Below are positions 5,512-26,597 of a stretch of 32,000 bases of DNA, in pieces; the stretch's first letter is position 1, and the number at the start of each line of letters is the position of its first letter. The notes beneath the pieces are model-generated. The model was not told the DNA's origin, did not search any database, and saw nothing but the letters and a program-made list of their open reading frames with translations. The DNA is from an uncultured Nitrososphaerota archaeon (GTDB lineage Archaea; Korarchaeota; Korarchaeia; Korarchaeales; Korarchaeaceae), in contig CAYZRF010000009.1 of the NCBI GenBank assembly GCA_964480775.1, forward strand, positions 34,364-66,363, given 5' to 3'. A program made the translations under genes and the position numbers.

Positions 5512-5625
5512 GTGGTTATTGGTGAGTTTCTCTTCTCATTGAATTTACTTATAACTAAAAGACAATATAGGAGAGAGGAAACTGAATATTGCAAGCTTTT
5601 AGGTGAACAGGCGAGTTGTAAAGTG

Positions 5626-6087
5626 ATGTCAATACCAATCGAGATCGTTGAGGTTGAGGGAGAAAGCTGGTGTACAGTACTTAAACAAATGGCTAAACAA
5701 CTGGTAGATAAAGGATATGTCAAGGAATCTTATGTAAATGCCCTTATCGAGAGAGAAAAGAACTATCCCACTGGAATTAAAATCCCTTCAGGGATCAATG
5801 TTGCCATACCTCATGCCGATATAGAACATGTCTTGAGACAGGCACTAATAATTGGTGTACCTAAGAATCCCGTTATCTTCCACAACATTGAGGAGCCGAA
5901 GGAAACTATTAGCGTAGAACTCATTCTTCTACTTGTTATTAAAGAACCAGAGGGTTATGTTAGCTTTCTCTCAAAGTTAACTCGACTCTTTCAGGATAAA
6001 GACTTTATAACATTTGCAAAGGGGAAATTATACAAAAAACTTGCTGATCTAATAGTAGAACGATGTCTTAAAGGAAAAAGTAAGTGA
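5626..6087 (+). CDS. PTS Enzyme IIA, type 2 (mannitol/fructose/galactitol/Ntr-type; SgcA/GatA/PtsN-like)
   Basis: EKNYPTGIKIPSGINVAIPHADIEHV matches the EIIA-2 phospho-His loop (..G.AIPH..). A start at ATG 5626 (MSIPIEIVEV) gives about 153 aa, typical for the family. The track extension back to 5512 encodes atypical sequence. Confidence 0.75.
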   Translation: MSIPIEIVEVEGESWCTVLKQMAKQLVDKGYVKESYVNALIEREKNYPTGIKIPSGINVAIPHADIEHVLRQALIIGVPKNPVIFHNIEEPKETISVELILLLVIKEPEGYVSFLSKLTRLFQDKDFITFAKGKLYKKLADLIVERCLKGKSK

Positions 6088-8078: not shown

Positions 8079-9176
8079 TTAGCTTTTAAGAACCTCTGGA
8101 TCTTCTAATTTCTTCTTTATTTTTCCTAAGAACTCAGAGGCTGGAACTCCATCAACAACTCTGTGGTCAAATACAAGGGATATATGTATGGTCGGTTTCG
8201 CACATAATTTATTCTCTACCACAGCAAGACTATGTGTAAGTGTTCCTACTCCCAAAATTGCTGATTGAGGAGGGTTTATTATTGGTATAAAGAATTTAAC
8301 GTCTTTAGCTCCCAAGTTAGAAACCGTAAAGGTGCCATTGGCTACATCCTCAGGAGACAAACCCTCTTCTCTAGCCTTTTTTGATAGATTTTCGATCTCG
8401 TTGCTGATCTCGACGAGCGATTTCTTGTCGGCGTTCTTTATCACAGGAACCACAAGACCTTGGGGCAAACTTACTGCCACTCCTACGTTTATATCTTCAT
8501 ATACTATTATCCTGTCTCCTTCTACACTGGAGTTTAGCATTGGATCTTCCCTTAGAGCTAAGGCGACGGCTTTAACTATCATGGCCGTAATAGAAATTTT
8601 CTTTCCATCTCTTGTTAGTCTTTTTCTCATTTCTAGCACTTTGGTCATATCTACCTCAGCGATTATAGCAACACTTGGGATGGTTTGATGACTTTCAGTC
8701 ATCCTTCTGGCTATTGTTTTTCTCATTCCTTCTATTCTAACTATTTTCATTATCTTTGGACCTTTTTCCTCCTTCTGTGCCATTTCAAGAGCTCTGATAA
8801 CATCTTCTCTAACAATTCTTCCACCAGGGCCAGTACCCCTTATTTTTGAGATATCTAAACCATATTCCTTAGCTAATCTTCTTGCAGCAGGTGATATTTT
8901 GATCTTCTCCTTTGGAGGCAACTCTTCGCTCATTTCTTCGCCAGGAGCTGCGATTATAGCTATCGTCTCCGTAACAGGAACTTCATCTCCCTCTTTTGCT
9001 ATTATCTTTCTTAATATGCCAGAGGCAGGGGCTTCTACGGAGAAAATGGTTTTTTCGCCCTCAACTTTGACTATCGGTTCTCCCTCTTTAACTTCATCTC
9101 CCTCTTTTTTGAGCCATTCCACTATCTTTCCTGTCTCCATTCCAGGATCTATCCTTGGTAGGATCACTTTCTTCAT
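8079..9176 (-). CDS. 2-oxoacid dehydrogenase complex E2 (dihydrolipoamide acyltransferase)
   Basis: One lipoyl domain (VKVEGEKTIFSVEAPASG), the peripheral-subunit binding domain (ISPAARRLAKEYGLDISKIRGTGPGGRI), and a catalytic domain ending in the active-site motif FDHRVVDG. Confidence 0.9.
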   Translation of the reverse strand: MKKVILPRIDPGMETGKIVEWLKKEGDEVKEGEPIVKVEGEKTIFSVEAPASGILRKIIAKEGDEVPVTETIAIIAAPGEEMSEELPPKEKIKISPAARRLAKEYGLDISKIRGTGPGGRIVREDVIRALEMAQKEEKGPKIMKIVRIEGMRKTIARRMTESHQTIPSVAIIAEVDMTKVLEMRKRLTRDGKKISITAMIVKAVALALREDPMLNSSVEGDRIIVYEDINVGVAVSLPQGLVVPVIKNADKKSLVEISNEIENLSKKAREEGLSPEDVANGTFTVSNLGAKDVKFFIPIINPPQSAILGVGTLTHSLAVVENKLCAKPTIHISLVFDHRVVDGVPASEFLGKIKKKLEDPEVLKS

Positions 9177-9186
9177 TATATCACCG

Positions 9187-10158
9187 CTATACTATCTCTT
9201 TAATGGTTTTCACTATGTCATCACTCCAAACCATATATTGTTTTTCCAACGGAGGAGAAAAGGGTATAGGGACGTCAGGGGATGTAACTCTCATTATTGG
9301 CGCATCTAAGTAATCAAATGCTCCCTCCACTATGGTTGCTGTGAGTTCTGCTGTCACACTTCCTGTTTTGTGATCGTCTGCGGCTACTACAGCTCTGCCA
9401 GTCTTCTTAACAGAATCTACGATTGTTTTTCTGTCTAGTGGGCTCAAAGTCCTTGGATCTATGACTTCAACGCTAATTCCATCTCTTTCAAGCTCTTCAG
9501 CTGCTTTTAATGCTTCAACAACCATTCTAGAAACAGCTACCACCGTAACATCTTCTCCCTCCTTTTTTATGTCTGCAGAGCCTAATGGAATCTCATAAGG
9601 TTCTTCTGGCACTGGTCCTTTGGATCTGTATAGAAGGCCACACTCTATAAACAGAACTGGGTTATCATCCCTTATAGCGCTTATTAGCATTCCTTTGGCA
9701 TCATAAGGCGTAGAAGGTAGCGCCACCTTAAGCCCTGGTACGTTCATGTACCAAACAGGGAAGAACTCAGAGTGTTGAGACGCATGAGCTCTTCCTAAGC
9801 TATATTGAGTTCTAACAACTATTGGGACTCTTAGCTTTCCTCCAGAGGTAAAGGACATTTTAGCTGCCTGGACCACCAGTTGTTCGGTGGCAATCGGCAG
9901 AAAGTCCATGTACATTATCTCGGCTACTGGCCTTAAGCCCATAAGAGCTGCTCCTATTGCTGCTCCAACTATCGCTGCCTCTGAGATGGGGGTATCCCTG
10001 ACCCTCTCCTGACCGAACTCGTCCAATAGACCTTTTAATACTTTAAAGGCGCCCCCATAAACCCCAATGTCTTCTCCAAGAAGAAAGACATTTTGATCTC
10101 TTTGCATTTCCTGCCTTAAAGCTTCTCTTATTGCTTCTGCATAGGTGATTTCCCTCAT
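9187..10158 (-). CDS. 2-oxoacid dehydrogenase E1 component, beta subunit
   Basis: 323 aa with the typical E1-beta N-terminus (ITYAEAIREAL..EDIGVYGGAFKVLKGL..RVRDTPISE) and a transketolase C-terminal-like domain. Overlaps the E1 alpha stop by 4 nt. Confidence 0.9.
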   Translation of the reverse strand: MREITYAEAIREALRQEMQRDQNVFLLGEDIGVYGGAFKVLKGLLDEFGQERVRDTPISEAAIVGAAIGAALMGLRPVAEIMYMDFLPIATEQLVVQAAKMSFTSGGKLRVPIVVRTQYSLGRAHASQHSEFFPVWYMNVPGLKVALPSTPYDAKGMLISAIRDDNPVLFIECGLLYRSKGPVPEEPYEIPLGSADIKKEGEDVTVVAVSRMVVEALKAAEELERDGISVEVIDPRTLSPLDRKTIVDSVKKTGRAVVAADDHKTGSVTAELTATIVEGAFDYLDAPIMRVTSPDVPIPFSPPLEKQYMVWSDDIVKTIKEIV

Positions 10159-11183
10159 CTAAATGTCACCTCCTCAAGAATGTCGAAAGGTGGAAAATCA
10201 CTTCTTTTAGAAAATTCCACGGCTTCTTCTATCTCTTCTCTAACCTCGCGCTCAAGTTTTTTGAGTTCTTCGCTGGATAGTATTCTGAGTTCCAATAACA
10301 ATCTTGAGAACCTATTTATGGGATCTAGCTCTTGCCATCTTTTTTCCTCTTCTTTAGATCGATACTCAGCTTTGTCATAAACTCCATGGCCTTTCATTCT
10401 GTAGGTTAAAAACTCAATTAACGTCGGACCTTCTCCTCTTTCTGCTCGCTCTTTCGCCTTTATAGCAGCCTTATAGACCGATAGAACGTCATTTCCGTCC
10501 ACGATCATACCTGGAATCCCGTATGCAATAGCCCTAAAAGCAACTCTTCCGCAAGTAACTGCCTTGTTCGCAGGCATCGATATCGCATATTGATTATTTT
10601 CACATGCAAAAATTACAGGAAGCTTCCAAAATGAAGCAAGATTAAGGGCTTCGTGCCAAGCACCAGTGTTTGCCGCTCCATCGCTAAAGAAAGCTACTGA
10701 AACTCCTGATTTTCCGCTGTATTTTAAAGCCAAGCCCGCTCCTACAGCAATAGGCACGCTGCTACCAACTATTGCTGATGCCCACATCGCTCCTTTTTCA
10801 GGATCTATGCATGCATGCATAGATCCGCCAAGCCCTTTGCAAACACCAGTAACTTTGCCAAACAATTCGGCCATCACTTCTTTTGGAGAAATATCCATTG
10901 CTAGGGCGTGACCATGACCTCTGTGTGTGCTAAAAACATAGCCATTTCCCTTTATCGCAGAACAGACTCCAACTGCTATTGCTTCCTCGCCAAAATAGAG
11001 GTGAGCCGCTCCCTTTAAGGCAGCTTCGTATACATAGAGTTTTTCTACTTTTTCTTCAAATATCCTTATCTCTAACATTTTTCTGAGCATTTGAATCAAT
11101 TCACTTTTCTCTAATCCTATTTCGTAAATTTCCGAAGGATCTATCCCTTTTATTTCCTCTATTTCCCATTCTAGTTTAGTCAA
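10155..11183 (-). CDS. 2-oxoacid dehydrogenase E1 component, alpha subunit (TPP-dependent; PDH/BCKDH/acetoin family)
   Basis: 342 aa with a TTG start. TPP-binding region VAFFSDGAANTGAWHEALNLA...ENNQYAIS, plus HRGHGHALA. First gene of the E1alpha-E1beta-E2 operon. Confidence 0.9.
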   Translation of the reverse strand: MTKLEWEIEEIKGIDPSEIYEIGLEKSELIQMLRKMLEIRIFEEKVEKLYVYEAALKGAAHLYFGEEAIAVGVCSAIKGNGYVFSTHRGHGHALAMDISPKEVMAELFGKVTGVCKGLGGSMHACIDPEKGAMWASAIVGSSVPIAVGAGLALKYSGKSGVSVAFFSDGAANTGAWHEALNLASFWKLPVIFACENNQYAISMPANKAVTCGRVAFRAIAYGIPGMIVDGNDVLSVYKAAIKAKERAERGEGPTLIEFLTYRMKGHGVYDKAEYRSKEEEKRWQELDPINRFSRLLLELRILSSEELKKLEREVREEIEEAVEFSKRSDFPPFDILEEVTFR

Positions 11184-11666: not shown

Positions 11667-13388
11667 GTGGAAAAACTAAAAGGAATACCAGCATCGCCAG
11701 GCATAGCAATTGGAAGGGCCTTCATATTCAAGAGTGAAAGGAGGGAGGTTGTGAAAAAAGAGATTCCTCCCGAGCTTATTGATACGGAAATAAATAGATT
11801 TAATCAAAGTTTAGGGAAAGCAAAAGAATTTCTAACAGAATTGATGGAAAAAGTTAGAAGAGAGGTAGGAGAGGAGGAGGCGAAGATTTACGAGGCTCAA
11901 CTAATGATGCTTGAGGACGAATCTTCATTTATCGAACCAGTGAAGAAGATGATTTCTAATAAGAAAGTTTGCGCAGAGTTTGCCGTTGAAAAAGTTCTCG
12001 ATGAGATTATTGCCATATTCAAGAAAATGGATAACGAGTACATGAGAGAACGCGCAACTGACGTTAAAGACGTAAAAGAACTCGTAATAAGCTTTCTGTC
12101 TGGAAAAAAGAGAGGAGTCAAAGAATTAACAACAAAGTGTGTTATAGTAGCAAGTGAACTCTTACCGAGCGACATAGCTGCTCTTAACAAAAGAATGGTC
12201 TTGGCGTTTGTGACAGAGACTGGAGGATCTACCTCTCATGTCGCGATAATAGCTAGGACTCTTAAGATTCCAGCAGTGGTAGGGATAGAGAACCTGTCTA
12301 ACAGGGTTAAAGAAGGAGACATGCTTATCGTTGATGGATATGAGGGATTATTATTACTCAATCCAACAGAGGAGATTGTGTCTCTCTATCAAAAGAAGAA
12401 GAAAGAAGGGGAAGTAATGTTCGTTGAACTGGTTAAAGAAGCAAAACTACCAGCAACTACAAAAGATGGATTTAGATTTAAGGTCTTTGCTAATGTTGGC
12501 AATTTGGAAGATGTAAAAAAAGCAATTGAGTATGGGGCTGAAGGCATAGGTCTTCTTAGGACGGAATTCATGTATACGGAAAGAGAAAATATGCCTACCG
12601 AAGAAGAACTCTTTCAAACCTTTCTCGAAATAAGCAAGTTAATGGGCGACAAACCAATCATCATCAGAACTTTGGATATCGGGTGTGATAAGCCGCTTCC
12701 ATATCTTGAAATGCCCAAGGAAGCAAACCCTTTCCTTGGCTGGAGGGGTATTAGATTAACTCTAGAAAACCCTGAGATACTAAAAATCCAGTTTAGAGCG
12801 GTCTTGAGAGCTTCAACAAAAGGGACCTTCAAGATTATGTTTCCCATGGTAACAACGTTGGAGGAAGTCGTAAAGGCAAAAGAAATTTTAAAAGAAGTCT
12901 CAAAAGAGTTAAGTATCGAAAAAATCTCTTTTAAAGAAGTTAAAGTAGGAACTATGATCGAAACTCCAGCTTCAGCTATGATTGTAGATATCCTTGCTAA
13001 GGAGGTGGATTTCTTTAGCATTGGAACTAATGATTTGGTTCAGTATCTAATGGCTGCAGATCGAGGAAACGCAAGAGTTTCAGGACTCTATAGGCCTTTT
13101 CATCCAGCAGTTTTAAGGATGATACACAAAATAATTGAGGATGCTCATAAAGCTGGAAAAGAAGTTGGAATGTGTGGAGAAATGGCATCAGATCCAAAAG
13201 CAATTCCTATCCTTGTAGGAATGGGTTTGGACGAGTTTAGCATGAGTCCGTCTTCGATTCCGAGGGCTAAAAAAGTGATAAGGTCCATAAGTAAAAAGGA
13301 GGCTGTTAACCTCCTGCGAGAAGTCTTAAAGGCTAAGACTATTTCAAATGTATTAGAAAAAGTTTCAAAATTTAGAATTGAGTTTTGA
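11667..13388 (+). CDS. ptsI: PTS Enzyme I (PEP-protein phosphotransferase)
   Basis: 573 aa with a GTG start 2 nt after the HPr stop. Phospho-His motif TETGGSTSHVAIIARTLKIPAVVG, a PEP-utilising TIM barrel (LGLLRTEF, SIGTNDLVQY) and the catalytic Cys in GMCGEMASDP. Confidence 0.93.
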   Translation: MEKLKGIPASPGIAIGRAFIFKSERREVVKKEIPPELIDTEINRFNQSLGKAKEFLTELMEKVRREVGEEEAKIYEAQLMMLEDESSFIEPVKKMISNKKVCAEFAVEKVLDEIIAIFKKMDNEYMRERATDVKDVKELVISFLSGKKRGVKELTTKCVIVASELLPSDIAALNKRMVLAFVTETGGSTSHVAIIARTLKIPAVVGIENLSNRVKEGDMLIVDGYEGLLLLNPTEEIVSLYQKKKKEGEVMFVELVKEAKLPATTKDGFRFKVFANVGNLEDVKKAIEYGAEGIGLLRTEFMYTERENMPTEEELFQTFLEISKLMGDKPIIIRTLDIGCDKPLPYLEMPKEANPFLGWRGIRLTLENPEILKIQFRAVLRASTKGTFKIMFPMVTTLEEVVKAKEILKEVSKELSIEKISFKEVKVGTMIETPASAMIVDILAKEVDFFSIGTNDLVQYLMAADRGNARVSGLYRPFHPAVLRMIHKIIEDAHKAGKEVGMCGEMASDPKAIPILVGMGLDEFSMSPSSIPRAKKVIRSISKKEAVNLLREVLKAKTISNVLEKVSKFRIEF

Positions 13389-13496: not shown

Positions 13497-13745
13497 ATGC
13501 CTAAATTTCATGTACGCATCCAAAGAGAAGAGTGCATTATGGATGGTGTTTGTTGGTCGTTGTGTCCTGATGTATTTGAAGCTAATTCTGAGGATGGGAA
13601 GTCCCAAATAACGAAAAAATATAGGATAAATAACAGGATAGATGATGGAGAGGTTCTAGAGAATTTGGAAGCTTGCGTTAAAGAGGCTTCTATGGCTTGT
13701 CCTGTACAGATAATACGCGTTGAGGAATTCGGAGACAATGATTAA
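13497..13745 (+). CDS. Small monocluster ferredoxin (Pyrococcus furiosus Fd type)
   Basis: CIMDGVCWSLCPDVFE ... ACPVQIIRVEE. The pattern C-x2-D-x2-C-x3-CP plus a distal CP matches the P. furiosus ferredoxin arrangement, which has Asp in the second ligand position. The extra Cys pair (SLC / EAC) is also present. Confidence 0.75.
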   Translation: MPKFHVRIQREECIMDGVCWSLCPDVFEANSEDGKSQITKKYRINNRIDDGEVLENLEACVKEASMACPVQIIRVEEFGDND

Positions 13746-13964: not shown

Positions 13965-16900
13965 GTGCCAGATGTAGAGAGAGGTGTTGATATAAGACTT
14001 CTCGTTGTATCTTTGGTGCTATTTTTATTTGTACTTAATTCTTTTTCCTTATACGTCTATACTTACGCGCAGTCTTCTTCTAGAGGAAATTTTGGACCCT
14101 CTCTTAGTATTAACCCTAGAAATCAAGGCCATATTCCCTTTCTTCAAAGGATCGAGGACATCTCAATTGAAGTCGATCTAGATGCACCTCAAGAGGTTGG
14201 AGAGTGCTCTCCTTCTACTTTTATCATAGAAGTTAAGAATACAGGGAATGAGACGGCAAAAAACCTGAATGTAACTAATGTAATGCCTGAGGGATTCTTT
14301 TATCAAGAAGGCAGTTCTTCAATAAATGGAACCCCCCATGAGCCCACCCAGAGTGGTAGAAATCTTACTTGGAGCATAGGAGATGTTACTCCTAACCAGA
14401 CTTTTATCTTAGAATTTAACTTAACTGCTGGATGTGAAGCACATACCGGGGCAGTAGACAAGGCCGTTGTAGAATATTCAAATGGGACTCACACAGATTA
14501 CAGGGAAGATGAATCGTTGGGAATTAAAGTCCTTCATCCTTCTCTTGTCGTTTACAAAGAACCTATTGTGATTCCAGCCCATAAAGGGGACATCGTGAAC
14601 TGGACCGTCAGGGTCAAGAACGAGGGATTTTTCGCAGCCTCAAACGTGACGATTTTAGATTCTTTGGGGAGTGGTCTTTCCCTTAATTCTTCGAATCCAT
14701 CTTATAACGGTTCTTTCCCTAATGGGACCATCTATTGGACCAATATCTCCCTAGATGTGGGTGAAGAGTTTGTTATTCAGCTCAAAGTAAAAGTTGTAGG
14801 TTGCGAGAATCTTACCAACGAAGTTAGAGCCTATCCCACGTGCAATGGTCAAGTTTGTAGAAGGGTTGATGGGGTCCTAACAGAGCTTCCAAACACTCTT
14901 GCTTCCATAGAGTTTCTCAAAAGAGTTCCAAACATACAAATTACTTCATCCACATTAAATCCAAGTCTAATAGGACCATGTAGTCCCTCAAACTTCACAA
15001 TTTTCTTGGAAAATCAAGGAACCGGAGCTTCTTATTCAACCAACGTTACACTTGAATTGAGAGGTGGATTACAGTATGTAAACGGGAGCGGAAATCCAAC
15101 TCCTACTGTTAATGGCGAAGTCTTAACGTTTCATATAGGTACAATAGAGCCTGGAGGAACCAGTAAGATATCCATGAACTTGTCCATCCCTTGTGGGACA
15201 AGCGGGACAAAACAGATTTTGATTCATATGAGATATTTCGATGAATGTGATAATCTTTGGCTCCCTCCAAGCACTTACCTTGGTGTTGATACATCTTCGC
15301 CATCGGTAAGCGTCAGCAAAACTGGACCTCATGAAATAATCAACACAAGTTCTGGAGAGGTTTATACGGTAGATGTGGCTTGTAACGGCCTTAATCTCTG
15401 TCAAAACGCCCATGTGATTGTTAATGATTCAATACCTTCAATGCTCACTTACGTGAACAGCACCCCTCCGGGAAATTACGATCCAGTCAAAAACACCGTA
15501 ACCTGGAATCTATCTGCAGGGAACTATACACTAAACATCACATTGAAGCCCTCTCCTTCAGCAGGATGTGGGGATCATGGGATGAACGAAGTTACTGCAA
15601 CGCTATTCTGCTGTAAAAATTGTAGCATTTCGGATTCCTCTTCCATATCCATAAGAGTAACCTGTTCTGAAATTCCGTCAGATTGTTTTCAAATAAGGTC
15701 ATTCTCAAATCAGTCCTCTGTAGAACCCTGTAAAGGGTTGAACTACACCTCGACCATCAATTTTCTGGTCGATGGTATAAATTCCACTCGTTCCAACATG
15801 ATATATTTCCATTACAATGAAAATGGGTTGAAGGAGGAGTACGTTGGTCCAGCTTACCTCTACCTTCCAAACGGGACTCAAGTTGCATTAGGTCCGCCTT
15901 TGCAGAATTCAACATGCCTGAGCTGGAATCTCAGCTCTTTGAACTTCATAGTCAATTCCGGAGACTCCATAAACATAACGTATGTCCTCAGAGTGAAGTG
16001 CAACGCTTCTTCATACATTCACGACGTCCAAGGATTCTCAATGACAGCAAGGGACTCTGCTGGAAACGACCTTAATTGCTCCGGTGTTGCGAGATGGGCA
16101 GCCTATATCTTGATCATAAGGGCCTCTATGTCGATTTCTGAGGAAATACCTCCCCTTCTGGACTTGTGTAGGGAGAGAGAGTATGAGGTGAGAGTAGAAG
16201 GTGCCACCAGCGCAAATCCGGGGTATAATGTTACCGTGGCAAAATACGTTCCTCCTAACTTCATTTATAACTCTACTACAGAAGTAGAGTTCTCGAACGG
16301 AACTATAGTCCAAGTCACTCCTTATTTTGAGAACAGATGGCTAATTTGGAATAAATCAATCGTTTCCCAGCTTTCTAAGGTTGACTGTGATTTTTGGATA
16401 AGAGTAAATATGACTGCATGCTACAACAGGACCCCTGGCTTCCACTTTAAGGCAAATCTTACATGGGATGATTACTGTTTATATATTGGAGGGTGTACAC
16501 CGGATTGTACTTGTAGACGTACGGACATATATGACAGCGGTTCAATTCTCATCCTGAAACCTGAGTTCGTTATACTTAAGACTCCAGAGGTTATTTATGC
16601 TATACAACAAGAAGTAAAATGGAGGATTCAGCTCTCAAATGTAGGAAACGGCTCTGCATATTCACCAGCTTTCAAGCTTGTCGATCTCCTTGGAGAGGGT
16701 CTCGTATGCGTTGGAACTGACTTGCCAACTGGTTGGTCTGCAACTATCTCGCCTGACAGAAGAAACGTGACCTTTACTGCTCAATCCCTTGACGCAGGGG
16801 AGACTGTCGAGTTTAACTTGACCGCTAAGATGGTTAAGTGTGAGGGACTAACGAACAATGTCTCTGCTTTGTGGGGATGCTGCGGTAAATGGTTCCAGAT

Positions 16901-19900
16901 GGATTTCGATAACTCTTCCGTAGAGGTCCCATCGGCAGCAGTATCAATCACAGATCACTTAGAACCGCAAGCAGCCAAACTTTGTTACGATCAAAAAGTA
17001 ACAGTTAAGCTGAAGAACGTAGGTAAAGTTGCCATCTATAACTGTACCTTAAACTATACGCTTCCAAATTGCTATGTCTACAATAGCAATGTCCAGGCCT
17101 ATGTGAACGGAACTCCATTTAATCCAAATCTCTCAGGCAATAGATGGGCGCTCTGGAACTTCACGCAAACAACATTCGATGAAATTCTTCCGAATGAGTT
17201 TACAGAAATCGTTTTTAACGCAACAGCAACGTGTCCATGCGACATAGATAATTCTGGTGGCTACTCAGCAACGTTACTTTCCTATGCCAAAGCCTGTGGA
17301 CAAGTCGTCGGTCCATTCAATTACACTGGAACTGCGCTTTACACAGTAGATGCTCCGGACATCTACCTTGTAGTCCCATCCTATATCTGTGGGGAGGCCG
17401 GAGATATTGTATGGTGGAATTTAACAATTAGAAATAGAGGAAGTGCTACTGCAGAGCTTGTTAATGTTACGGTCGAGATTCCGGCAAGCGTTTCAGTGAT
17501 ATCTACGATTCCTGCTCCAGACTCAGTTGCAGGCAACATTTACACCTGGTTAACTCAGTCAGTTGGTGGTAAGGTTCCTGACATACCCCCGAACGGGGAA
17601 TTTGAGATAGACATGCGCGTTAGGGTTGATGATTGTGATCCTCAAGATTATCTTAAAGTGAAGATAGAAGATGGTTGCCCTGGATGTTTCTTTGAAAGGG
17701 AATGGTACAATAATACTACCTATGTCCACAGTCAACCATTCCCACCCGAAATACATCAAGACTTAGAACCTGTTAACGCGTGTGGAAATGCAACATATAA
17801 AGTGCAAGTAGCAAACGAAGATCCCTGTCTCTCGTTGTACGCAACTCAACAAGGCGCAAATTATGTCCTAACTTTCCTCGATTATCTGCCAACCGGGATA
17901 TCATACAGAGGCGAGTCAGGCGACTGGGATGTCCTATTCCATGATAATGAGACGGGATCAAACACTAGCATGAATGCCAATACGATTTTTTCTTATGATC
18001 AGGTTAATAACGTCATAAACTGGACGATCGTCCTCTCATCTTTTGAGATGACACCTGGAGATTATTTCATATTCACCTTCAACGTTACATCTCAGATCTG
18101 TGATCTTTCGTCAGGAAATAACGTGTTTCAGGCTACAAAGTTCAAAGATTCTTGCGGATATGATATTTCAGCAAGTAACACCGCTAGAGCACCGATTTTA
18201 TTACCAGATCTATCGATATCCAAGACTCCTAGCGTTCAATACGGTGATCTTTACGATCAGGTTTGCTGGAACATACGGGTCACCAACAACGGTAACGGCA
18301 CTGCCTACAATGTTACAATATGGGATGTACTCTGCCAAGCTTTGTCTTTTGATGAGAATGCTCAAGCATCAACAACGCCCTGGGACCTAGTTTATCTCCC
18401 TGGGGTTAATGCGTCCGGGGCTGAGACGACTATAGTCTGGAAGAATAGAGTTATACCACCTGGAGGTTATGTCACATTAGTCCTATGCGCAAATATCTCG
18501 GCTTGTCCTGTTCCTCCACAACACCCATACGATGATGCTTATGCGAACTGGGGGTGTGACTCCTACTGTAATTACTCAACTCCAGTCCATGCTCATGCCG
18601 ATGTCTACATGTATGGAGTTCCAAGTCCACTCTCGAAGTCTCCGACGTCATTTAATGTTTGTGGAAATGAAACGATAGAAATTTCAGTAACCAACGCAGG
18701 CGCGACGATGTTTGGAATATGCATAAATGAAACGCTTCCGTATGGTCTTGATCCCATTTTCATTGACACCTCAGGAAATGTTCTTGCAAACGTTACCTTA
18801 GGGACGACTACCTACTATAACGTGCCGAGTAACTATACTGTAAGTGTTTCAGGGCTGTACGAAAGAATAATTTGGAATCTAACGAAAATTAATGTTTCAC
18901 AAGGTCAAACACTATATTTGAGATTTAGGGTTCATGCAAATTGTAGTTTTGATTTCTCTACTGAGACAGTTAACATCACGTATTGGGACTCCTGTGGAGA
19001 AGTTTATTCTATGGAGAGAGAAGATCTCCTCAGGCCCCTCAGACCAGATTTATCGATAAGCTATAAGACTAAAACCCAGCCAGCTGGTAGACCCGATAGA
19101 TTTGAACTTGTTGAGTGGGAAATTCATGTGATAAACTCTGGAGACGGGGATCTTTACTTCTTAAACGTTTCAGACAAGTTGGGATCTCAATTCAAATTTA
19201 TTTCATCATCACCCTCTCCAGATTGGGTTGATGACCCATTAGACCCTCACATCCTAAAGTGGAGTTTTGACTGGAGTAGCAGTCCGTTATCTCCTGGAGA
19301 TGAATACGTAATAACTATCAGGGCGAACCTTACTGGTTGTGCAGAGCCCGGATGGAACAATGCATCTCTAGTTTGGGGTTGTGATTCTGTAGCTTGTGCA
19401 CCAATTTCTTGGGCAAATAGCTCCGTTGAGAGAGCAAAACCCGACCTAGTTGTTTCTTATTCATCTCCGCCCTTCTTGATCTGTGGAAATACTACTGTCA
19501 ATTTCTACGTTACAAATATTGGTGATGGGTCTGCTTTTGGATTTAACTCCAGCCAGCCATTTAAATTGAGATATCTCTTCCCTGTAAGAGCTCCAAATCT
19601 TGATTGCATGAAATATGTTTCCGGAAGCACGAACATCTCGTTCTCAAACGGGACCATAATACATCCAGAGCCTCAGATATTGATGGTTGGGGGAGAGAAG
19701 TTCCTTGAATGGAACCTGTATTGGATACAAGTTGGACCTGGAGAACGGATAAATGTCAGCTTTAAGGTCATTGCCTCTTGCTGTTTCCAAAAAGGAGACA
19801 ATGGTTCGGCATATGCTAGCTGGTATGACTTATGTGGTAATTTCGGTGAAGACGAGGATATAGATGCGGCCTCTCAAATACTAATTCCGGACATTTCCTT

Positions 19901-22871
19901 GAGTAAAACGCCAACCACTGTTGGGGCAGATCGTTGGGATAACGTCTCTTGGCTTATCGAAGTGCGGAATGATGGGAATGGAACTGCTAATTTTGTGAAC
20001 GTCACGGAAGTATTTGGATCGGGACTTACATATATCACAGATAATGCCTCTCAATACAGAGTTTATTCAGACCATAACAAGGTTGTCTGGAACTTAACAG
20101 AAATACCTGCAGGAGATAGGATTCTCATAGTATCGTGGGCAAATGTCTCAGGATGTAGTGGACTGACAAACGATGTTTACGCAAGCTGGGGATGTATTGG
20201 GGCAATTTGTCAGGAGAAGAATAGCTCAACAACAGTTTATTTGATTTGGCCAAACATATCAATAAGCAAAAAACCGGTTGGGGGTACTTGCCCAGTTAGA
20301 GTTGAGCCAGGAGATGTTACCACATTTGAGATTTTGTTAAATAATTCTGGAACAAAAGGCACGGGGTATAACCTCACAGTAGAGGACGAAATGCCTTCGT
20401 TCATGGAGTTTTTAGACGCAAGCGATGGAGGTACTTACAACGCTAGTACCCACAACGTCACATGGAAGATCTCAAAGCTAGGAAATGAGACTATGATGTT
20501 AACCTTGACTATGCGTGTTAAACCTGGAACTCCAGACGGAGCTGCTGAAATTAACAACGTTACTGTCACTTACTTTGACGCCTGTGGCAATACTAAGAAC
20601 CCAGACACTGGCGCTCCTTATTGGGACAAAGCAGAGTGTAAGATGATAACTGTTGCTGCTCCAGAGTTAAGAATCAATAAAACAATATCAGAAAATCCAA
20701 TAAATGCTTGTCATAACGTCAGCGTCATTTTAACAATTAGAAACATTGGACATGGAACTGCATATTCTGTAAATGTCTCAGATATTCTTCCACCAGGAAT
20801 AGAGTATGTCAAAGGATCAACCGAGGTAAGAAACTCTTCTACAGGTGCCATAATATCAACGGCAGATCCTGTGGTAACCACGATGGGAACTTCTGGGAGA
20901 ACTAACCTTACATGGCCTCTTAATTTAAAGATGAACGGAAAGGAGAATATAACCATAAGCTTTAATCTAACTGCTGGGTGCGGGCTTAAAGCAGGGTTAG
21001 AAGAGTTTTCTGTTGTTGGTAAGGATGGAGGAGGGTTCATTAAGAGAGACAGTGGTTCTATGGATATTTTGGTCGTAATACCAGTTCTTGAAGTCGAAAA
21101 AGAGCCAGAATCACAGACAAAGTCCCTCGGGAGCGTTGTAGAATGGACGATAACCGTCAGAAATGTTGGAAACGGGACCGCACACAACGTGACGTTAGTA
21201 GATCAGCTTGGTCCAGGTTACGAATTTGTTTCTGCAAACGGTTCTTACAGCATATCAGGAAACACAATAACGTGGACTAACATCTCTTTGACTTCAGGAT
21301 CCTCTCAGAGCTTTAACATTAAGGCGAGGATCTCCAAGTGTTCTGGTCTAAAGGAGCACGTTGAAGCCAGTTGGTGGTGTAGAAACGTATCTTGTGCCTC
21401 ATCCGAGGCAGAGGCAAGGGTTTCTCTTAGAGCTCCCAAATTAACGGTTGAAAAGCAATTCAATGCCAGTTTCGTTAAGATAAGAGAGCCAGTTCTTGCA
21501 ACGATCAGGGTCAGAAACGTTGGAAATGAAGGGGGAACAAATCTAATGGTTTTTGAACCTCTACAAGAATGTTGGACTTTCCTTGGAACGGTTAGTGTTC
21601 TGGACGAATCGGGTAGGCCAGTTGGATACAAAGAAGAAATCACTACAGAGGGAGTGGTTTGGAGGATAAACTCCTTAGGCAAAGGAGAGGAGGTCGAGAT
21701 AAAATTCGTTATAACTTATGATTGCAATTCGCTTCCAGGATCAAGACGTCAGCACAACTTCACAAACTGTGTTCTAGCAAATCTTACAGGAAGTTGTGGT
21801 CCAGTGTCGGCGACCAATTGTTCATGGATTGTCGTGGAACTCCCATCGAGAACACCGACACCTACTCCGACTCCCACTGTTACTCCGACTCCAACACCCA
21901 CAGCCACACCAACCCCAACACCGACACCTACTCCGACTCCCACTGTTACTCCGACTCCAACACCGACGCCTGCCCCACCGATCAAACTGAAGGTTTCAAA
22001 AGCCTCTAAGAAGATCATAATGTGGGGAGATCTGGTAAACTACACGGTTATAGTAAGGAATGAAGGAAATACCAACCTAGTAAACATAGCGGTGACAGAC
22101 AATCTTCCTTCTTACCTTGAATACATACGTGGAACTTCTACGATAAATGGTCATAAATCTGAACCAAAAATTGAGCAAGATTCGCTTATTTGGATAATTT
22201 CGTCTCTAGCTCCAGGAGAAGAAGCCATCATAAAGTTCAGTTGTAGGATGCTTGAATACCCAAGAGGAGGCATCATAATCAATCCTGTGAATGTAAGAGG
22301 GTTCGAGACGTACGCACGGTCTCTAATATATGCCCCAATTTCATTACTTCTATTAATACCGTTATTTGTACTGACAACAAGGAGGAGACCTGTAGTTGTC
22401 GACTTTGAATATCTAAAAACGCTATTCAAAGCAACGGATTTCTTCCTTCCGTTTCTCTTCGGAAAAATTATAATCTCAAAATCTACATTTGAAAAGGCTA
22501 CAAGAGATAAGAAAATCAGCAACATAGTTGAAGAACTCGTTTCAAGAGGTCTAATTCAAGTTCACGAACTATCACAAGAAGCTAGGGAACTCTCAGAAGA
22601 AATTACAAGCATCTATCAGGTAGAAAAAGAGGAAGGCGATGCTATAGCACTATCACTTCAATGCGAAGCTGAGAAAGCTCTGTTAGGTAGAATTAAGACA
22701 AGAGAGGTTGCTATTTCATTGGGTATAAGAGCGTTGGGGTGTGGAGGTTCGATATTTTATCTAATCGAGAAGGGCTTGATCACCAAAGAGGAGGGGCGAG
22801 TCCTTCTCGATTTTTTAGTTTCTGAGGGATATCTTACAAGTTCCGAAGATATAAGTTTGGGAGGGGTGTGA
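13965..22871 (+). CDS. Giant (2968 aa) secreted, membrane-anchored surface protein: signal peptide, about 18 DUF11-type conserved repeat beta-sandwich modules, Thr/Pro linker, C-terminal TM helix, cytoplasmic PIN-like tail
   Basis: GTG start 27 nt from a TATA-like box. N-terminal signal/TM ([27 protein letters not shown]). Module-start motifs recur (e.g. PDLSISKTP...VxWxIxVxNxGNGTAxNVxxxDxL). NxS/T sequons are very dense and Cys motifs are conserved. The linker [18 protein letters not shown]... is followed by one more DUF11 module, then [22 protein letters not shown] + RRRP, then a 159-aa tail. Confidence 0.9.
21851..21964 (+). repeat. Two perfect 48-bp direct repeats (21851-21898 and 21917-21964, period 66 bp) encoding the Thr/Pro linker
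   Basis: The sequence aacaccgacacctactccgactcccactgttactccgactccaacacc occurs twice, identically and in frame ([16 protein letters not shown]). Confidence 0.9.
22320..22379 (+). other. Predicted C-terminal transmembrane anchor of the giant protein
   Basis: A 20-residue hydrophobic stretch, [20 protein letters not shown], is immediately followed by RRRP (positive-inside rule). Confidence 0.7.
22392..22868 (+). other. Cytoplasmic tail domain resembling a PIN / DUF3368-type domain (partly degenerate)
   Basis: [11 protein letters not shown] resembles PIN strand 1 with its Asp. EGDAIALSL resembles [47 protein letters not shown] resembles the DUF3368 consensus GT.G.L..A...GLI......LL..L...GF.IS.EL. 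The expected LLxDD..AR is replaced by LLGRIKTR. Confidence 0.5.
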
Positions 22872-22872
22872 A

Positions 22873-23337
22873 ATGATAAGTCTAGATGAGAAAGAATTAG
22901 AGAATATGAAAAAAGAAAGGTTAGATAAGCTCATAAAAAGATCGGAGGAAGTGAGAAGAACTCAAAGAACTCGCAAACTGATAGCGTCCGTACTTATCAT
23001 AGTTTCTGTGTTTCTAGTAGTGGTTTCGTGGGTGATACTAGGGTTCACATATAAATACACCATAGCAGGAGCTATTGGTTCTGTCTTACTTGGAATAGGG
23101 TTTTATCTACTTTTCACTGAGCCAGGGCTTAAGCCCAAAGCGACTTTGATAGATGAAGTACAGTTAGCAGTAACACAATATGAAGGAAAAAGATTGAAGG
23201 AAGAAATCAGAGCCGCCATTGGAAGACATAGAGATGAACCGCACTTAGCTGCAAGACTTGAATCCATTCTTTCTACTAAAGATGGAGAAGAGCTTACTAA
23301 GGCATTAAGAGAGTTAATAAGCGCCTTTAAGGGCTAA
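22873..23337 (+). CDS. Small 2-TM membrane protein with charged helical cytoplasmic termini; function unknown
   Basis: The ATG lies 1 nt after the TGA of the giant gene and is preceded by GGAGGGGTG (22859-22867). Two hydrophobic helices (LIASVLIIVSVFLVVVSWVILGF and TIAGAIGSVLLGIGFYLLF) are joined by a 4-residue loop. The N- and C-terminal segments are K/E/R-rich. Confidence 0.7.
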   Translation: MISLDEKELENMKKERLDKLIKRSEEVRRTQRTRKLIASVLIIVSVFLVVVSWVILGFTYKYTIAGAIGSVLLGIGFYLLFTEPGLKPKATLIDEVQLAVTQYEGKRLKEEIRAAIGRHRDEPHLAARLESILSTKDGEELTKALRELISAFKG

Positions 23338-23361
23338 TTGGACTATAATGGCCTCCTAGCA

Positions 23362-23369
23362 TTTTTATT
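23362..23369 (+). terminator. T-rich tract downstream of the giant-protein / 2-TM operon
   Basis: tttttatt lies 25 nt after the stop at 23337. Archaeal termination typically occurs at oligo-T tracts. Mirror-image A-runs (23491-23496, 23522-23527, 23544-23548) would serve the convergent fbp gene. Confidence 0.35.
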
Positions 23370-23558
23370 CTGCTAAAAACTTAGGATGTTTAGAAATTTA
23401 GCCGTCATATAGCCCAATCTATGGCAAGTTGATTAGAGACCGAGAACATCTCTCTTACAACCCGAATAACGCGTTATAATTGACTATGTCAAAAAATAAT
23501 TGACATTATACCTTTAGAATCAAAAAAGAAGGAGAGATATCATAAAAATATGTTGTCA

Positions 23559-24659
23559 TTAAATCGATTCGAATCTGTCCTTTAATTTCTCCAACACTTC
23601 TGGTAGAGTTGTATATTCCATTTCTGTAGATCCAAGTCTATGCGGCATAAATGGTCCATGCCTCCTGAGATAATCGGCAATTTCGTTTGCAATTTTCCTT
23701 GCCCTGTCAAATGAAACGTCAGAAAGTAAGTCACTAGGTCCGATCAGTTTGCCATTCTTAACGTTAAACCCCAGACCCACAACTCGCGGAGGGCCATCAA
23801 ATCTACTCGGTCTAGCGTCTTTAAGCGAAACAGGCATTAATGGACCATGATGCGAACCCCTCATCCAGCCAGCAACGAGATGGGACATGGCAAATGGTTC
23901 TAAAATCTCTCCCAACGCAGGGAATTGGCTTTGTGCACGTACAATTGCTACTGGATCATCCTTTCCGACGTATTTTCCTGCTATGAGGCTTAATTTTGTC
24001 GTACTAATGGCTGCTGCAATATCCTTCTTCTCTCCCTTTGTATAGACCCTTCTCACGATATATCTGCTGGGAGTACCAATAAGGGCCAGTATATCATACA
24101 TCTCCTCGGGACTTGATAACTCAACCTTTTTCCCTTCATGAACATCCAAAACCTCGAAGATGAAGCCATCATGAAGTTTAGGCGAGATTACCAGTCCGGC
24201 TGTGTTGAAAGGATCGGCAAATATCTTGAACATGGGCAGGTTGAAGGCTCCGGGTTCTGTTTTATCAGCCATAAATACGACAAATGGCTCCGCTGGTCTT
24301 TCTTCGATTTCTATCTCGGCAAAGCCAGGTCCCATTCCACGTAAATTTCCTGAAAAGGCATCTGAAAGCAAATCTTGGCCAGCTCCATATAATCCAAGCT
24401 CTTTCGAGACATCTGTTGCTTTCTTGAAAATCTCCCAAGCGAGACTGTGTATATCTGAGGAATTCTCTCCTTTCTTGTGAGTCATTATGAGTTGTAAGTC
24501 GTCTCCTACCGCAGTCACGAAATAGTCAACTACTTCTCTTTTTCTCTTGGCTTCTGCTAACAAAGTCCGAGCAACTTCTAGCAGTTGATCTGGAACGATG
24601 TGATGTCCCGCTAAACTTCCAATATCGGCCTTAATTACAGAAATCGTTATCTTGGCCAT
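23559..24659 (-). CDS. fbp: Bifunctional fructose-1,6-bisphosphate aldolase/phosphatase (archaeal class V FBPase)
   Basis: MAKITISVIKADIGSLAGHH... is the hallmark N-terminus of this family. WMRGSHHGPLMPV and the length of about 366 aa also fit. The track ORF extends 10 codons further upstream, to 24689. Confidence 0.92.
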   Translation of the reverse strand: MAKITISVIKADIGSLAGHHIVPDQLLEVARTLLAEAKRKREVVDYFVTAVGDDLQLIMTHKKGENSSDIHSLAWEIFKKATDVSKELGLYGAGQDLLSDAFSGNLRGMGPGFAEIEIEERPAEPFVVFMADKTEPGAFNLPMFKIFADPFNTAGLVISPKLHDGFIFEVLDVHEGKKVELSSPEEMYDILALIGTPSRYIVRRVYTKGEKKDIAAAISTTKLSLIAGKYVGKDDPVAIVRAQSQFPALGEILEPFAMSHLVAGWMRGSHHGPLMPVSLKDARPSRFDGPPRVVGLGFNVKNGKLIGPSDLLSDVSFDRARKIANEIADYLRRHGPFMPHRLGSTEMEYTTLPEVLEKLKDRFESI

Positions 24660-24752
24660 TTTTCGATCCCTGAACAATAGTTCATGCACCTAAAAAAGGA
24701 TTTGTCATGTTGAAGTAATCTGTTAGCAAATATTCGGAAATCTGTCTTAAGG

Positions 24753-26597
24753 TTGGTATATCGGAATGATTATGATTATAATGGCTTTTATGTAGTTATC
24801 TGTGACTTGAAGTTAGTAAGGATAACAGCAGTGTTCCTTATTTCCGCTCTTGCAATTTGTGGAGTGGTAGAGCCCATAGCTTCCTCGCTTTCTCAAGAAT
24901 TTAGGATATTTCATGGCTTAGACGTCAAAAAACCAATATTGATTGTTTATAGAGACAAGTTTTCAATGCCTGCCAATCTAATGGCTCTTTCCATAAGATA
25001 TTATGCAGTTAGGCCAGAGGATCTTAGAAACATAGATATATTCGATTTTTCAGCCGTTATATTTGATTATGGTGTCGGGCACGAAGACGTCAGCGGCTGG
25101 ATCATATCAAACAATTGGAAACTCATAAAGTGGCTTGAAAATGGTGGAGCTTTTTTAGATTTCACATCTGGAGAAAGAGTTGTTTTCTTTGATTTAGAAA
25201 TAGCTATTCCCGAAAATTTTGAGGTAAAGATAGTAGAAGATCACCCACTTCTGCATTGCCCTAATGTTCTAACTGATGTATCACCCGTGGCGCAAGTTGC
25301 ATTCACTGGAGGCTCTGATCTGCAGAATTTTAAGGTTATAATGGAAGCAGGAAGCAAGCCAACCTTATTGGTAAGGGAAATAGGGAGAGGGAGAGTTGTA
25401 ATTTGTGGTCTTTACGGGGTTGGACCTTGGTTTAAGGGAGGTTTTATTGAAAATGCTCTTTATTGGGCTACAAAAGGCCAATTTTGGTCATCAACAGTAT
25501 ATGCGATGAGAAAAGATACTGAACACTTTGCTGTCCTCTATCCTCCTTTTGCGAACAAGTCAATACCGTTAATTTTGCCTTATTTGGATCAGGTGTACAA
25601 TCTATTGGCCAAACTCTCAAGAAGACATCCATATAATGGAGATAGAATTGTATTGGACTTTACCAAAGACATTTACTGGAGACTTGGTATGCCGGTGTCT
25701 GCTCTAGGAGGAAACCCGACTTTCATCGATATATGGATGCTTCCTGAGGTTGGAGGCGATCAAGAAAGGCTGATCTCTGTAATCTTCCATGAGATGGGTC
25801 ATGTTTTCTTAGGAAGTTACGATTTCTTGTATGGGGACTTCTCGGAAATGCTTGCTGAGGTATCAAAGCTCTATCTACTCGAAAACCTTGGATTCAATGA
25901 ACTTTTTGAGAAAGAGGTGAACGAGGCTTTAACTGCGCTTGAGATCTACGAAATAAATGGCGCAAATTTCTCCGAAATAAATGTGGAGGTCCTTACAGGT
26001 ATGATGTTTAAGTTAAAGGAGGAGTACGGGTGGGAACTCTTCTCAAGATACTTCAATCTTGTGGATAGATACGCTGTTTTTCCAAGGATTTCCTTCGATA
26101 GAAAAGTAAGTGCATTCGTTTATTTAATTAGCATAGCAGCTGGAGAGGACTTAAGTGACAAATTCAAAGAGTGGGGTTTCCCCATTATAAAAGCTCGGAT
26201 CTCGTGTAATTTAGACAAGGTTTGGGGGCAGACAGGAAAGCCCATTAGAGTAGTTGGAGTTTTGGAGCCCCCAGTTGTGGGAGTAATTTTCATTGATTAC
26301 AGAGTGGAGGGATCTAATAGATGGAAAGTGTTAGGAGTGACATCTACAGATGAATATGGATATTACAAATTTGAGTGGACGCCTTTTATTGAAGGGAGGT
26401 ATGAGATAAGAGCTAGATGGGTGGAAGGTGTTGACAACGAATTAGCGAGGTCTGAAATAAAATCCCTCACCACAGCCAAAAGCTTTCCTCTTAGTGAGCT
26501 GGGGGTTGGAAAGGTATTAATTCTTCTACTAAATCCTTTAGGTGCCTCTATCCTTTTGCTTTTCCTTCTTTTCATACACAAGAAGTTAAAACGCTAG
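24753..26597 (+). CDS. Membrane-anchored extracytoplasmic protein: N-terminal signal, GATase1/ThuA-like domain, HEXXH-x18-E gluzincin-like domain, Ig-like domain, C-terminal TM
   Basis: The probable start is TTG 24807 (MKLVRITAVFLISALAICG, a signal-like segment). LLVREIGRGRVVICGL resembles class-I GATase-like folds. HEMGH lies at 25788-25802, and a Glu 18 residues after the second His (25857-25859) matches the M1-type spacing. YGYYKFEWTPFIEGRYEIRARW looks like a CarboxypepD_reg/Ig-type strand pattern. The C-terminus is VLILLLNPLGASILLLFLLFIHKKLKR. Confidence 0.6.
   Translation: MVYRNDYDYNGFYVVICDLKLVRITAVFLISALAICGVVEPIASSLSQEFRIFHGLDVKKPILIVYRDKFSMPANLMALSIRYYAVRPEDLRNIDIFDFSAVIFDYGVGHEDVSGWIISNNWKLIKWLENGGAFLDFTSGERVVFFDLEIAIPENFEVKIVEDHPLLHCPNVLTDVSPVAQVAFTGGSDLQNFKVIMEAGSKPTLLVREIGRGRVVICGLYGVGPWFKGGFIENALYWATKGQFWSSTVYAMRKDTEHFAVLYPPFANKSIPLILPYLDQVYNLLAKLSRRHPYNGDRIVLDFTKDIYWRLGMPVSALGGNPTFIDIWMLPEVGGDQERLISVIFHEMGHVFLGSYDFLYGDFSEMLAEVSKLYLLENLGFNELFEKEVNEALTALEIYEINGANFSEINVEVLTGMMFKLKEEYGWELFSRYFNLVDRYAVFPRISFDRKVSAFVYLISIAAGEDLSDKFKEWGFPIIKARISCNLDKVWGQTGKPIRVVGVLEPPVVGVIFIDYRVEGSNRWKVLGVTSTDEYGYYKFEWTPFIEGRYEIRARWVEGVDNELARSEIKSLTTAKSFPLSELGVGKVLILLLNPLGASILLLFLLFIHKKLKR

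Follow-up and report, generated by a model that had tools for sequence, protein, structure and literature searches.

The window analysed here is a stretch of 32,000 nucleotides (nt) from contig CAYZRF010000009.1 of an uncultured archaeon placed in the Korarchaeaceae (GenBank assembly GCA_964480775.1, positions 34,364 to 66,363, forward strand). It carries a gene for a giant surface protein of 2,968 amino acids (aa) in which a domain of 159 aa, hereafter the tail, follows the C-terminal transmembrane (TM) helix, and immediately downstream lies a gene for a small protein with two predicted TM helices (2-TM). A preliminary description of this DNA, made from the letters alone, had proposed that the tail is a PIN/DUF3368-like domain exposed to the cytoplasm, and had noted that the open reading frame (ORF) continues for 159 aa past the TM helix and the motif RRRP. 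We recover this continuation on a single uninterrupted reading frame of 2,968 codons on the + strand (13965..22871), which closes with TGA at 22869..22871. The features of the gene and its product, numbered from the first letter of the window, are as follows.

13965..22871, + strand: gene of the giant surface protein (2,968 aa and a stop codon), predicted type I membrane protein (ORF list, translation)
13965..14072, + strand: signal-peptide-like segment, hydrophobic at about aa 10-33 (maximum of the 19-aa Kyte-Doolittle window, 2.37)
14073..21851, + strand: ectodomain of tandem CLIPPER/DUF11-type Ig-like repeats (Pfam, composition)
21852..21980, + strand: Pro-Thr-rich linker of 43 residues ending in APP (aa 2630-2672)
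21981..22328, + strand: last, membrane-proximal CLIPPER domain (aa ~2673-2788)
22329..22379, + strand: single C-terminal TM helix (aa 2789-2805; hydropathy maximum 2.22)
22380..22391, + strand: basic stop-transfer cluster RRRP (aa 2806-2809)
22392..22868, + strand: PIN-like tail of the COG2405/DUF3368 type, 159 aa, catalytically degenerate by its residues (aa 2810-2968)

Pfam assigns 15 stretches of the giant protein to DUF11/CLIPPER (E 6.7e-121), together with matches to DUF7507, DUF7619 and CARDB, and NCBIfam recognises the DUF11-type repeat TIGR01451 (E 1.2e-58). In the membrane-proximal domain, aa 2671-2743 match DUF7507 and DUF7619 (Pfam) and aa 2680-2729 match TIGR01451 (NCBIfam), and cysteine makes up 2.9% of the ectodomain. 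CLIPPER, the name given to DUF11 in 2025, denotes an isopeptide-stabilised stalk domain of fibrillar adhesins that is also found in archaeal surface proteins (PMC12617251). By its tandem domains, export signal and C-terminal TM anchor the giant protein belongs among the fibrillar CLIPPER/DUF11 surface proteins, and it resembles CLIPPER/DUF11 adhesins and archaeal TM-anchored or S-layer proteins in its signal peptide, tandem domains, stalk-like linker, C-terminal TM helix and basic cluster. The described archaeal TM-anchored proteins, however, stop at a short basic tail, as Thermoproteota S-layer proteins do after their TM helix (bioRxiv 10.64898/2026.08.21.746120), whereas the window protein adds a folded domain of 159 aa. 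Moreover, a survey of the CLIPPER family rarely detected co-occurring domains in archaeal members (PMC12617251).

Only two hydrophobic segments occur in the giant protein, the signal-like segment at the N-terminus, which to judge from the sequence would be cleaved before QSS, and the C-terminal TM helix. Because a signal peptide and a single TM helix are followed by a basic cluster, which is conserved in relatives as R(R/K)(R/K)(P/H), the positive-inside rule predicts that the tail sits on the cytoplasmic side of the membrane, as had been proposed. The distribution of N-X-S/T sequons, an independent indicator, agrees with this placement, 116 of them being present in the ectodomain (4.2 per 100 aa, with 8% Asn) versus none in the window tail (0.6% Asn) and none in four homologous tails.

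Beyond the TM helix, the first in-frame ATG, GTG or TTG is the TTG at codon 110 of the tail, exactly where the preliminary description had put it. Because there is no in-frame start before this codon, the tail can be made in the window genome only as part of the giant protein, and the same is true of locus L008, described below. An Rfam scan of the window gave no matches, and promoter and terminator scans around the junction stayed at chance level. A terminator-like hairpin with a T-run lies at 22788..22808 (+), inside the tail coding region and about 60 nt before the stop; the region holds two terminator-like sites versus a shuffle expectation of 1.2 +/- 1.0.

Family and predicted fold of the tail

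A full HMMER (phmmer) scan with the tail, covering 1.84 billion representative proteins, returned 12 standalone proteins of 125-178 aa (about 160 aa; E 1e-5 to 9e-4) and three further large CLIPPER proteins whose C-terminus is arranged alike (P0002, P0008 and P0004). PF11848 (DUF3368) is present in nine of the ten standalone relatives tested, with six above the gathering score, and the C-terminal helices of the tail align with the PF11848 region of these standalone proteins, the similarity to DUF3368 that had been read from the letters. When a profile of four fused tails was compared with a standalone DUF3368 profile, the two matched over 149 columns (hhalign 99.4%, E 7.8e-22). Profile scans had been suggested as a check on the family assignment, and it is this profile-to-profile comparison that bears the assignment out, although direct Pfam scanning gives nothing at E <= 1, a point taken up below. 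The PADLOC models for PDC-S70 also match the tail (E 7e-8). PDC-S70 is a candidate defence gene, mostly archaeal, that codes for a PIN nuclease domain and awaits experimental validation (PMC12988326).

The tail gave no match in a word-indexed protein search, and the same kind of search with the tail alignment recovered only P0001, a 99% identical variant; tblastn against a plasmid collection gave only two matches, both to Nostoc genes annotated as 'DUF3368 domain-containing', with 96% of the tail covered. Searching the sequences of the Protein Data Bank (PDB) with the standalone profile likewise returned nothing, and the best PDB sequence match of the tail profile is a weak one, to the PIN protein 2lcq (Nob1; E 0.04). 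In the precomputed annotation of P0001 (JGI Ga0164310_10035658, locus L004), PF11848.14 is listed with PF01345, the strength of the match not being stated. The tail seems to lie at the edge of what Pfam models detect, and the architecture may show in some databases only. Two long proteins, P0003 (3,098 aa; E 3e-9) and P0006 (2,078 aa; E 2e-5), were rejected as relatives. Each gives six short matches to tail residues ~105-146, and we regard their E-values as additive artefacts of repeats, those of the two proteins looking BspA/leucine-rich and plakin-like.

Structure prediction with AlphaFold2 (AF2) was carried out on the tail alone. The single-sequence prediction was uninformative (pLDDT 56); with an alignment of 16 sequences, the predicted model reached a pLDDT of 90.5 and a pTM of 0.85, and has the PIN fold that the preliminary description had expected. 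Its strands, at tail residues ~1-3, 26-29, 55-58, 95-97 and 114-115, alternate with helices, the first of them lying in VVVDFEYL, the segment that opens the tail directly after RRRP and had been likened to PIN strand 1. The model agrees with the three-layer alpha/beta/alpha fold around a parallel five-stranded sheet that is expected of PIN domains, and nearly all top matches in a Foldseek search of the PDB are PIN domains (probability ~1.0; TM-score 0.5-0.7). They include Nob1 (2lcq), the VapCs 3h87, 4chg, 5h4g and 6a7v, 2fe1, PAE0151, PAE2754 and SSO1118 (2mdt), the last being a representative of COG2405 with a TM-score of 0.71 when normalised by target; a structure of Nmd4 bound to the Upf1 helicase domain is also among them. 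That the tail is a PIN domain of the COG2405/DUF3368 type is, in our view, well supported by the sequence comparisons and by the model. Since PIN strand 1 begins in the model one residue past RRRP, with no linker, the predicted domain must abut the inner face of the membrane, and the carboxy-terminal ends of its strands, the former active-site face, would be directed away from it.

COG2405/DUF3368 proteins belong to the VapC group and are potential toxins that pair exclusively with UPF0175 (Matelska et al., PMC5499597). P0005, the closest standalone relative of the tail, sits in a canonical overlapping UPF0175–DUF3368 toxin–antitoxin pair, and the earlier suggestion of a captured toxin gene fits this finding. 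The tail is homologous to the COG2405/DUF3368 (PDC-S70) family across nearly its entire 159 aa, has the same predicted fold and C-terminal helical hairpin, and shares the strand-1 Asp, the helix-4 Glu and an invariant Arg and Gly. The known members, however, are standalone cytosolic proteins of ~160 aa with an upstream UPF0175 antitoxin, whereas the tail is C-terminal to a protein of 2,968 aa, lacks the carboxylates that follow strands 2 (Glu) and 4 (Asp), and is followed by a 2-TM gene. Nor does the locus have the organisation of a COG2405–UPF0175 type II module: the tail has no start of its own, the giant ORF stands upstream of it, and among the ORFs upstream of the giant gene we found a ferredoxin and no UPF0175.

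Active-site residues and conservation of the fusion

Besides the residues after strands 1 and 4 (S1 and S4) and at helix 4 (H4), PIN domains usually have a fourth acidic residue after strand 2 (S2). We mapped these positions on a joint alignment of fused and standalone proteins, which is consistent with hhalign. In the standalone DUF3368 alignment, D or N follows S1, the E of 'VYxE' is found after S2 in every sequence covering that region, and both the E of 'GEAE' at H4 and the D of 'L(I/L)D(D/E)' after S4 are invariant. The tail retains Asp2813 (after S1) and, at the N-terminal end of helix 4, Glu2890, while Lys2844 replaces the post-strand-2 Glu and Gly2908 (nt 22686..22688) the post-strand-4 Asp. 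The latter replacement, by which LLGR stands in place of the L(I/L)D(D/E) of the standalone relatives, had already been noticed as loss of the usual DD pair and had led to the suggestion of an altered or non-catalytic PIN domain. To this is added the loss after S2, and both losses recur in all five fused tails, which have Lys/Arg after S2 and Gly at S4 within LLG(R/K), and keep the S1 Asp and the H4 Glu. Because only two of the four catalytic carboxylates remain, we predict no canonical PIN nuclease activity for the tail, which is unlikely to act as such an enzyme.

These residues bear on the idea of a membrane-tethered toxin that is still active, namely a COG2405 RNase with a non-canonical site for which the 2-TM protein would be the antitoxin. 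Homology to COG2405 toxins is consistent with it, as is the small partner gene directly downstream, taken as co-transcribed; moreover, COG2405 members carry between two and five active-site residues and include proteins predicted to be active and others predicted to be inactive (PMC5499597). We nevertheless consider such a toxin improbable: the E and D that are invariant in the standalone relatives are gone from every fused tail, and the locus has neither an antitoxin gene in the upstream position nor a member of UPF0175, to which the downstream partner shows no relation (hhalign 0.1%).

The relatives in which the tail is fused to a CLIPPER protein are listed here with the identity of their tails to that of the window.

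P0002/L003: fragment of 1,808 aa, tail 45-46% identical
P0008/L006 (GCA_033582115.1, JAVQRZ010000176.1): 1,122 aa, tail 34% identical
P0004/L007 (ENA ZHAO22-1 scaffold_3174): fragment of 327 aa, tail 29% identical
L008: fifth lineage, found by a search with the downstream 2-TM gene, tail 83% identical

All share the layout CLIPPER–TM–R(R/K)(R/K)(P/H)–VV(V/M)D(Y/F)xxL–tail, and the comparison of orthologues that had been recommended earlier thus finds a tail, not a stop codon, after the TM helix in four further lineages. A Pro-Thr linker similar to that of the window protein is present in L003/P0002 and L007. The metagenomes of the five lineages are of hydrothermal and sediment type, and the only named relative is a Thermoproteota metagenome-assembled genome from the Guaymas Basin. 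Between the window and L008, the tail gives dN 0.094, dS 0.587 and an omega of 0.16, with corresponding omega values of 0.24 for the adjacent piece of the ectodomain and 0.06 for the downstream 2-TM gene. Between the window and L003, identity amounts to 63% in the ectodomain, 31% in the last CLIPPER domain, 22% in the TM helix and 46% in the tail, with no cassette break. Because the junction is shared across lineages and the tail is under purifying selection, the tail belongs to the coding sequence conserved in this protein family and is not a read-through artefact.

Continuity of the window sequence itself is seen in a Logan assembly of run SRR15988952, possibly from the same sample, which has no mismatches to 21935..24845, and in variants of 97-99% identity from JGI and ENA metagenomes (P0001, L009), which keep a continuous ORF. 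The tail frame is open in all five lineages, in several separate assemblies. Two of the relatives are interrupted further upstream. In L006 (~3020..3085), a +1/-1 frame change soon after an A-run (ggaaataaaaactc) breaks the giant gene up into two called genes, and the downstream frame carries the protein on without a stop; an assembly error and a real frameshift are both possible. In L007 (~6503..6507), an in-frame TGA falls at a conserved Cys position (GSCGPVSA in the window, GGCGVYSA in P0002), and the frame past it runs on into the Pro-Thr linker, the TM helix and the tail; it could reflect a sequencing error, a pseudogene or recoding. These interruptions, and the fact that only metagenome assemblies are available, might be taken to mean that the fusion is an artefact or a decaying remnant, whether a misassembly, an error removing a stop or a recent fusion without function. 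That explanation is extremely unlikely, however, given a junction shared by five lineages down to 29% tail identity in several assemblies, a tail frame that is open throughout, a dN/dS of 0.16 and a confident predicted fold.

The same comparisons speak to whether the giant gene might be an archaeal polymorphic toxin, in which the exoprotein would deliver its C-terminal PIN toxin to competitors and the downstream gene would provide immunity. The linear gene layout is indeed alike, with a huge repeat protein, a C-terminal nuclease fold and a small gene next to it (PMC3482391). The variable C-terminal toxin and extracellular delivery that characterise these systems are, however, not what we find. 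In the window protein, a TM helix and a positive cluster precede the tail and put it on the predicted cytoplasmic side; the tail does not vary among relatives, the same tail family and downstream gene recurring across lineages and the tail being better conserved between the window and L003 than the last CLIPPER domain or the TM helix; and its catalytic residues are degenerate. In addition, the Pfam scan reveals no pre-toxin or processing domain, and archaea rarely have classical polymorphic toxins or the matching immunity families (PMC3482391). We therefore judge this explanation very improbable.

The downstream two-helix protein and the neighbourhood

Two features at the 3' end of the giant gene concern the partner gene.

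22860..22866, + strand: GGAGGGG, a Shine-Dalgarno-like run in the final codons of the giant gene and 7-13 nt 5' of the ATG at 22873
22873..23337, + strand: conserved partner gene for a protein of 154 aa, with no Pfam family at threshold

Because the giant-gene stop (TGA 22869..22871) and the partner ATG (22873) are 1 nt apart and the Shine-Dalgarno-like run is embedded in the giant gene, the sequence suggests that the two genes are translationally coupled. The N-terminal helix of the partner is highly charged, with 12 K/R in 36 aa. A hairpin of two TM segments (aa ~36-57 and 62-82), joined by an outer loop of 4-5 residues, follows it, and then a helical C-terminal region of ~70 aa; both ends of the protein are predicted to be cytoplasmic. 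Directly 3' of the fused gene, L003, L007 and L008 each have a homologue, with 47%, 37% and 87% identity respectively, the one in L007 overlapping the giant-gene stop, and the first 19 partner codons are visible at the contig end in L006; the partner gene is syntenic in every locus whose contig extends far enough. The neighbours beyond these two genes differ between loci, and the conserved unit is for this reason taken to be the giant gene plus the 2-TM gene. Matches of the partner to DUF3040 are weak but recur in three of three members (best E 0.006, below threshold), and the window copy alone gives weak matches to SLATT (E 0.005-0.04, below cut-offs), Cas11 and CorA. Identification of the partner as a 2-TM effector of the SLATT type was rejected, the homologues from L003 and L007 giving no SLATT match.

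A coupled 2-TM protein next to a tail of the PDC-S70 family could also point to an outside-in sensor resembling an abortive-infection module, close to the outside-in coupling raised in the preliminary description, in which attachment of a virus, contact with a partner cell or damage to the envelope would act through the TM helix on the tethered PIN domain and the 2-TM protein; the output would be an altered RNase or RNA-binding activity of the PIN domain, or release of the 2-TM protein as a membrane-disrupting effector. PDC-S70 is an archaea-enriched candidate defence gene (PMC12988326), the partner is closely coupled, its window copy has the weak SLATT-type effector matches (E 0.005-0.04), and two carboxylates and the invariant Arg are kept in the tail. 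We regard this sensor as unlikely. Two of the four catalytic carboxylates are gone in all five lineages, a dead site that weakens the case for RNA targeting; the SLATT matches fall short of the threshold, stem from the TM segments and do not recur in the two homologues tested; PDC-S70 itself is without experimental validation (PMC12988326); there is no known signalling domain; and the neighbouring genes are housekeeping or metabolic, not defence. A version in which the fibre of ~2,800 aa signals the docking of a virus, contact with a neighbour or a mechanical pull to the PDC-S70-derived PIN domain and the 2-TM protein, as a surface-coupled immune or contact sensor, is doubtful to a comparable degree. 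If it were true, the protein would form a single-polypeptide link from envelope to cytoplasm with RNA binding, RNA cleavage or membrane permeabilisation as its outcome, of a kind that we have not found described in archaea.

The remaining neighbours of the giant gene are given for completeness. Parts of a phosphotransferase system (PTS) are encoded in this archaeal-looking window, namely an EIIA-2 protein (PF00359, E 7.5e-27) at 5512..6087 and a PtsI/Enzyme I-like protein at 11667..13388, which is complete with the N, mobile and C domains of PEP-utilisers; PTS components are, to our knowledge, uncommon in archaea. Also upstream of the giant gene are a 2-oxoacid dehydrogenase set (E1 alpha, E1 beta and lipoyl-E2) at 8079..11183 on the - strand and a gene for a small single-cluster 4Fe-4S ferredoxin at 13497..13745 (+). 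About 1.4 kb downstream of the unit of giant gene and 2-TM gene, an ORF of 614 aa at 24753..26597 (+) narrowly misses the Peptidase_M60 (enhancin-like) cut-off (25.7 versus 25.8 bits; E 1e-5), and may encode a glycoprotein-directed peptidase near the sequon-rich surface protein.

Proposed origin and role of the tail

We think it rather probable that the tail goes back to a captured and domesticated VapC-like toxin and now serves as a non-catalytic foot in the cytoplasm, to which the 2-TM partner docks and by which the fibre is anchored or organised. The giant ORF would encode a glycosylated CLIPPER/DUF11 surface fibre of the adhesin or envelope type, exported by its signal and held by the C-terminal TM helix. 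A VapC-like toxin gene of the COG2405/PDC-S70 type would have been captured at the 3' end of this gene; after capture, the UPF0175 antitoxin and two catalytic carboxylates would have been lost, yet the domain has stayed under purifying selection. The resulting pseudo-nuclease foot may provide a dock for those helices of the co-translated 2-TM protein that lie in the cytoplasm, and bundling of all three TM helices may give a membrane-embedded base complex. Such a complex would rivet, oligomerise or position the long isopeptide-type fibre in an envelope that has no wall.

A non-catalytic PIN domain is known from eukaryotes in the form of Utp23 (PMC5499597). Both Utp23 and Nmd4 keep the PIN fold, have lost catalytic carboxylates and work as binding modules, as is proposed for the tail; they are, however, eukaryotic, soluble and from an unrelated context, and the likeness is one of mode of working and not of family. 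Proteins of the PIN.COG4956 group resemble the window tail in that a PIN domain is tethered to the inner membrane face, although they represent another PIN subfamily, with four N-terminal TM helices, a TRAM domain, 3-4 active-site residues and no extracellular part (PMC5499597). The PIN classification lists nothing attached to a surface protein (PMC5499597), and in our literature searches we found no description of a PIN domain fused to a giant archaeal surface protein, in keeping with the statement in the preliminary description that no system of this architecture was known.

Several points weigh against the captured and domesticated toxin. Direct scans of the tail with Pfam (PF11848.13 and the PIN models; none at E <= 1) and NCBIfam gave no PIN/DUF3368 match, their sole output being sub-threshold noise such as TrmB and phasin, and the alignment supplied to AF2 consisted mostly of standalone DUF3368 proteins. 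Asp2813, Glu2890 and the invariant Arg2913 are still present, and the losses might in principle be made good by an Asp that is invariant in the family (aa 2848), perhaps implying residual or altered activity, or binding of metal or RNA. We infer the catalytic inactivity, the tail–partner contact and the anchoring or organising role, and AF2 modelling was limited to the tail. The examples are few and all derived from metagenomes (five lineages, being four clusters among the 1.84 billion representatives plus L008), and the upstream frameshift in the L006 giant gene and the in-frame stop in that of L007 mean that some copies may be decaying.

With only five lineages, the finding would be of niche impact, except if signalling turns out to be the function. 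Annotation pipelines for defence genes would probably miscount the tail as one. As an example of a toxin-type PIN domain of the PDC-S70/COG2405 family, the tail would illustrate how such a domain can be captured, disarmed and reused. Where an archaeal surface protein is expected to end in a few basic residues after its anchor, this one goes on into a folded cytoplasmic domain that is conserved and has a 2-TM partner of its own. The pair may offer a handle on how archaea without a wall hold and organise very large surface fibres, and on whether such fibres communicate with the cytoplasm.

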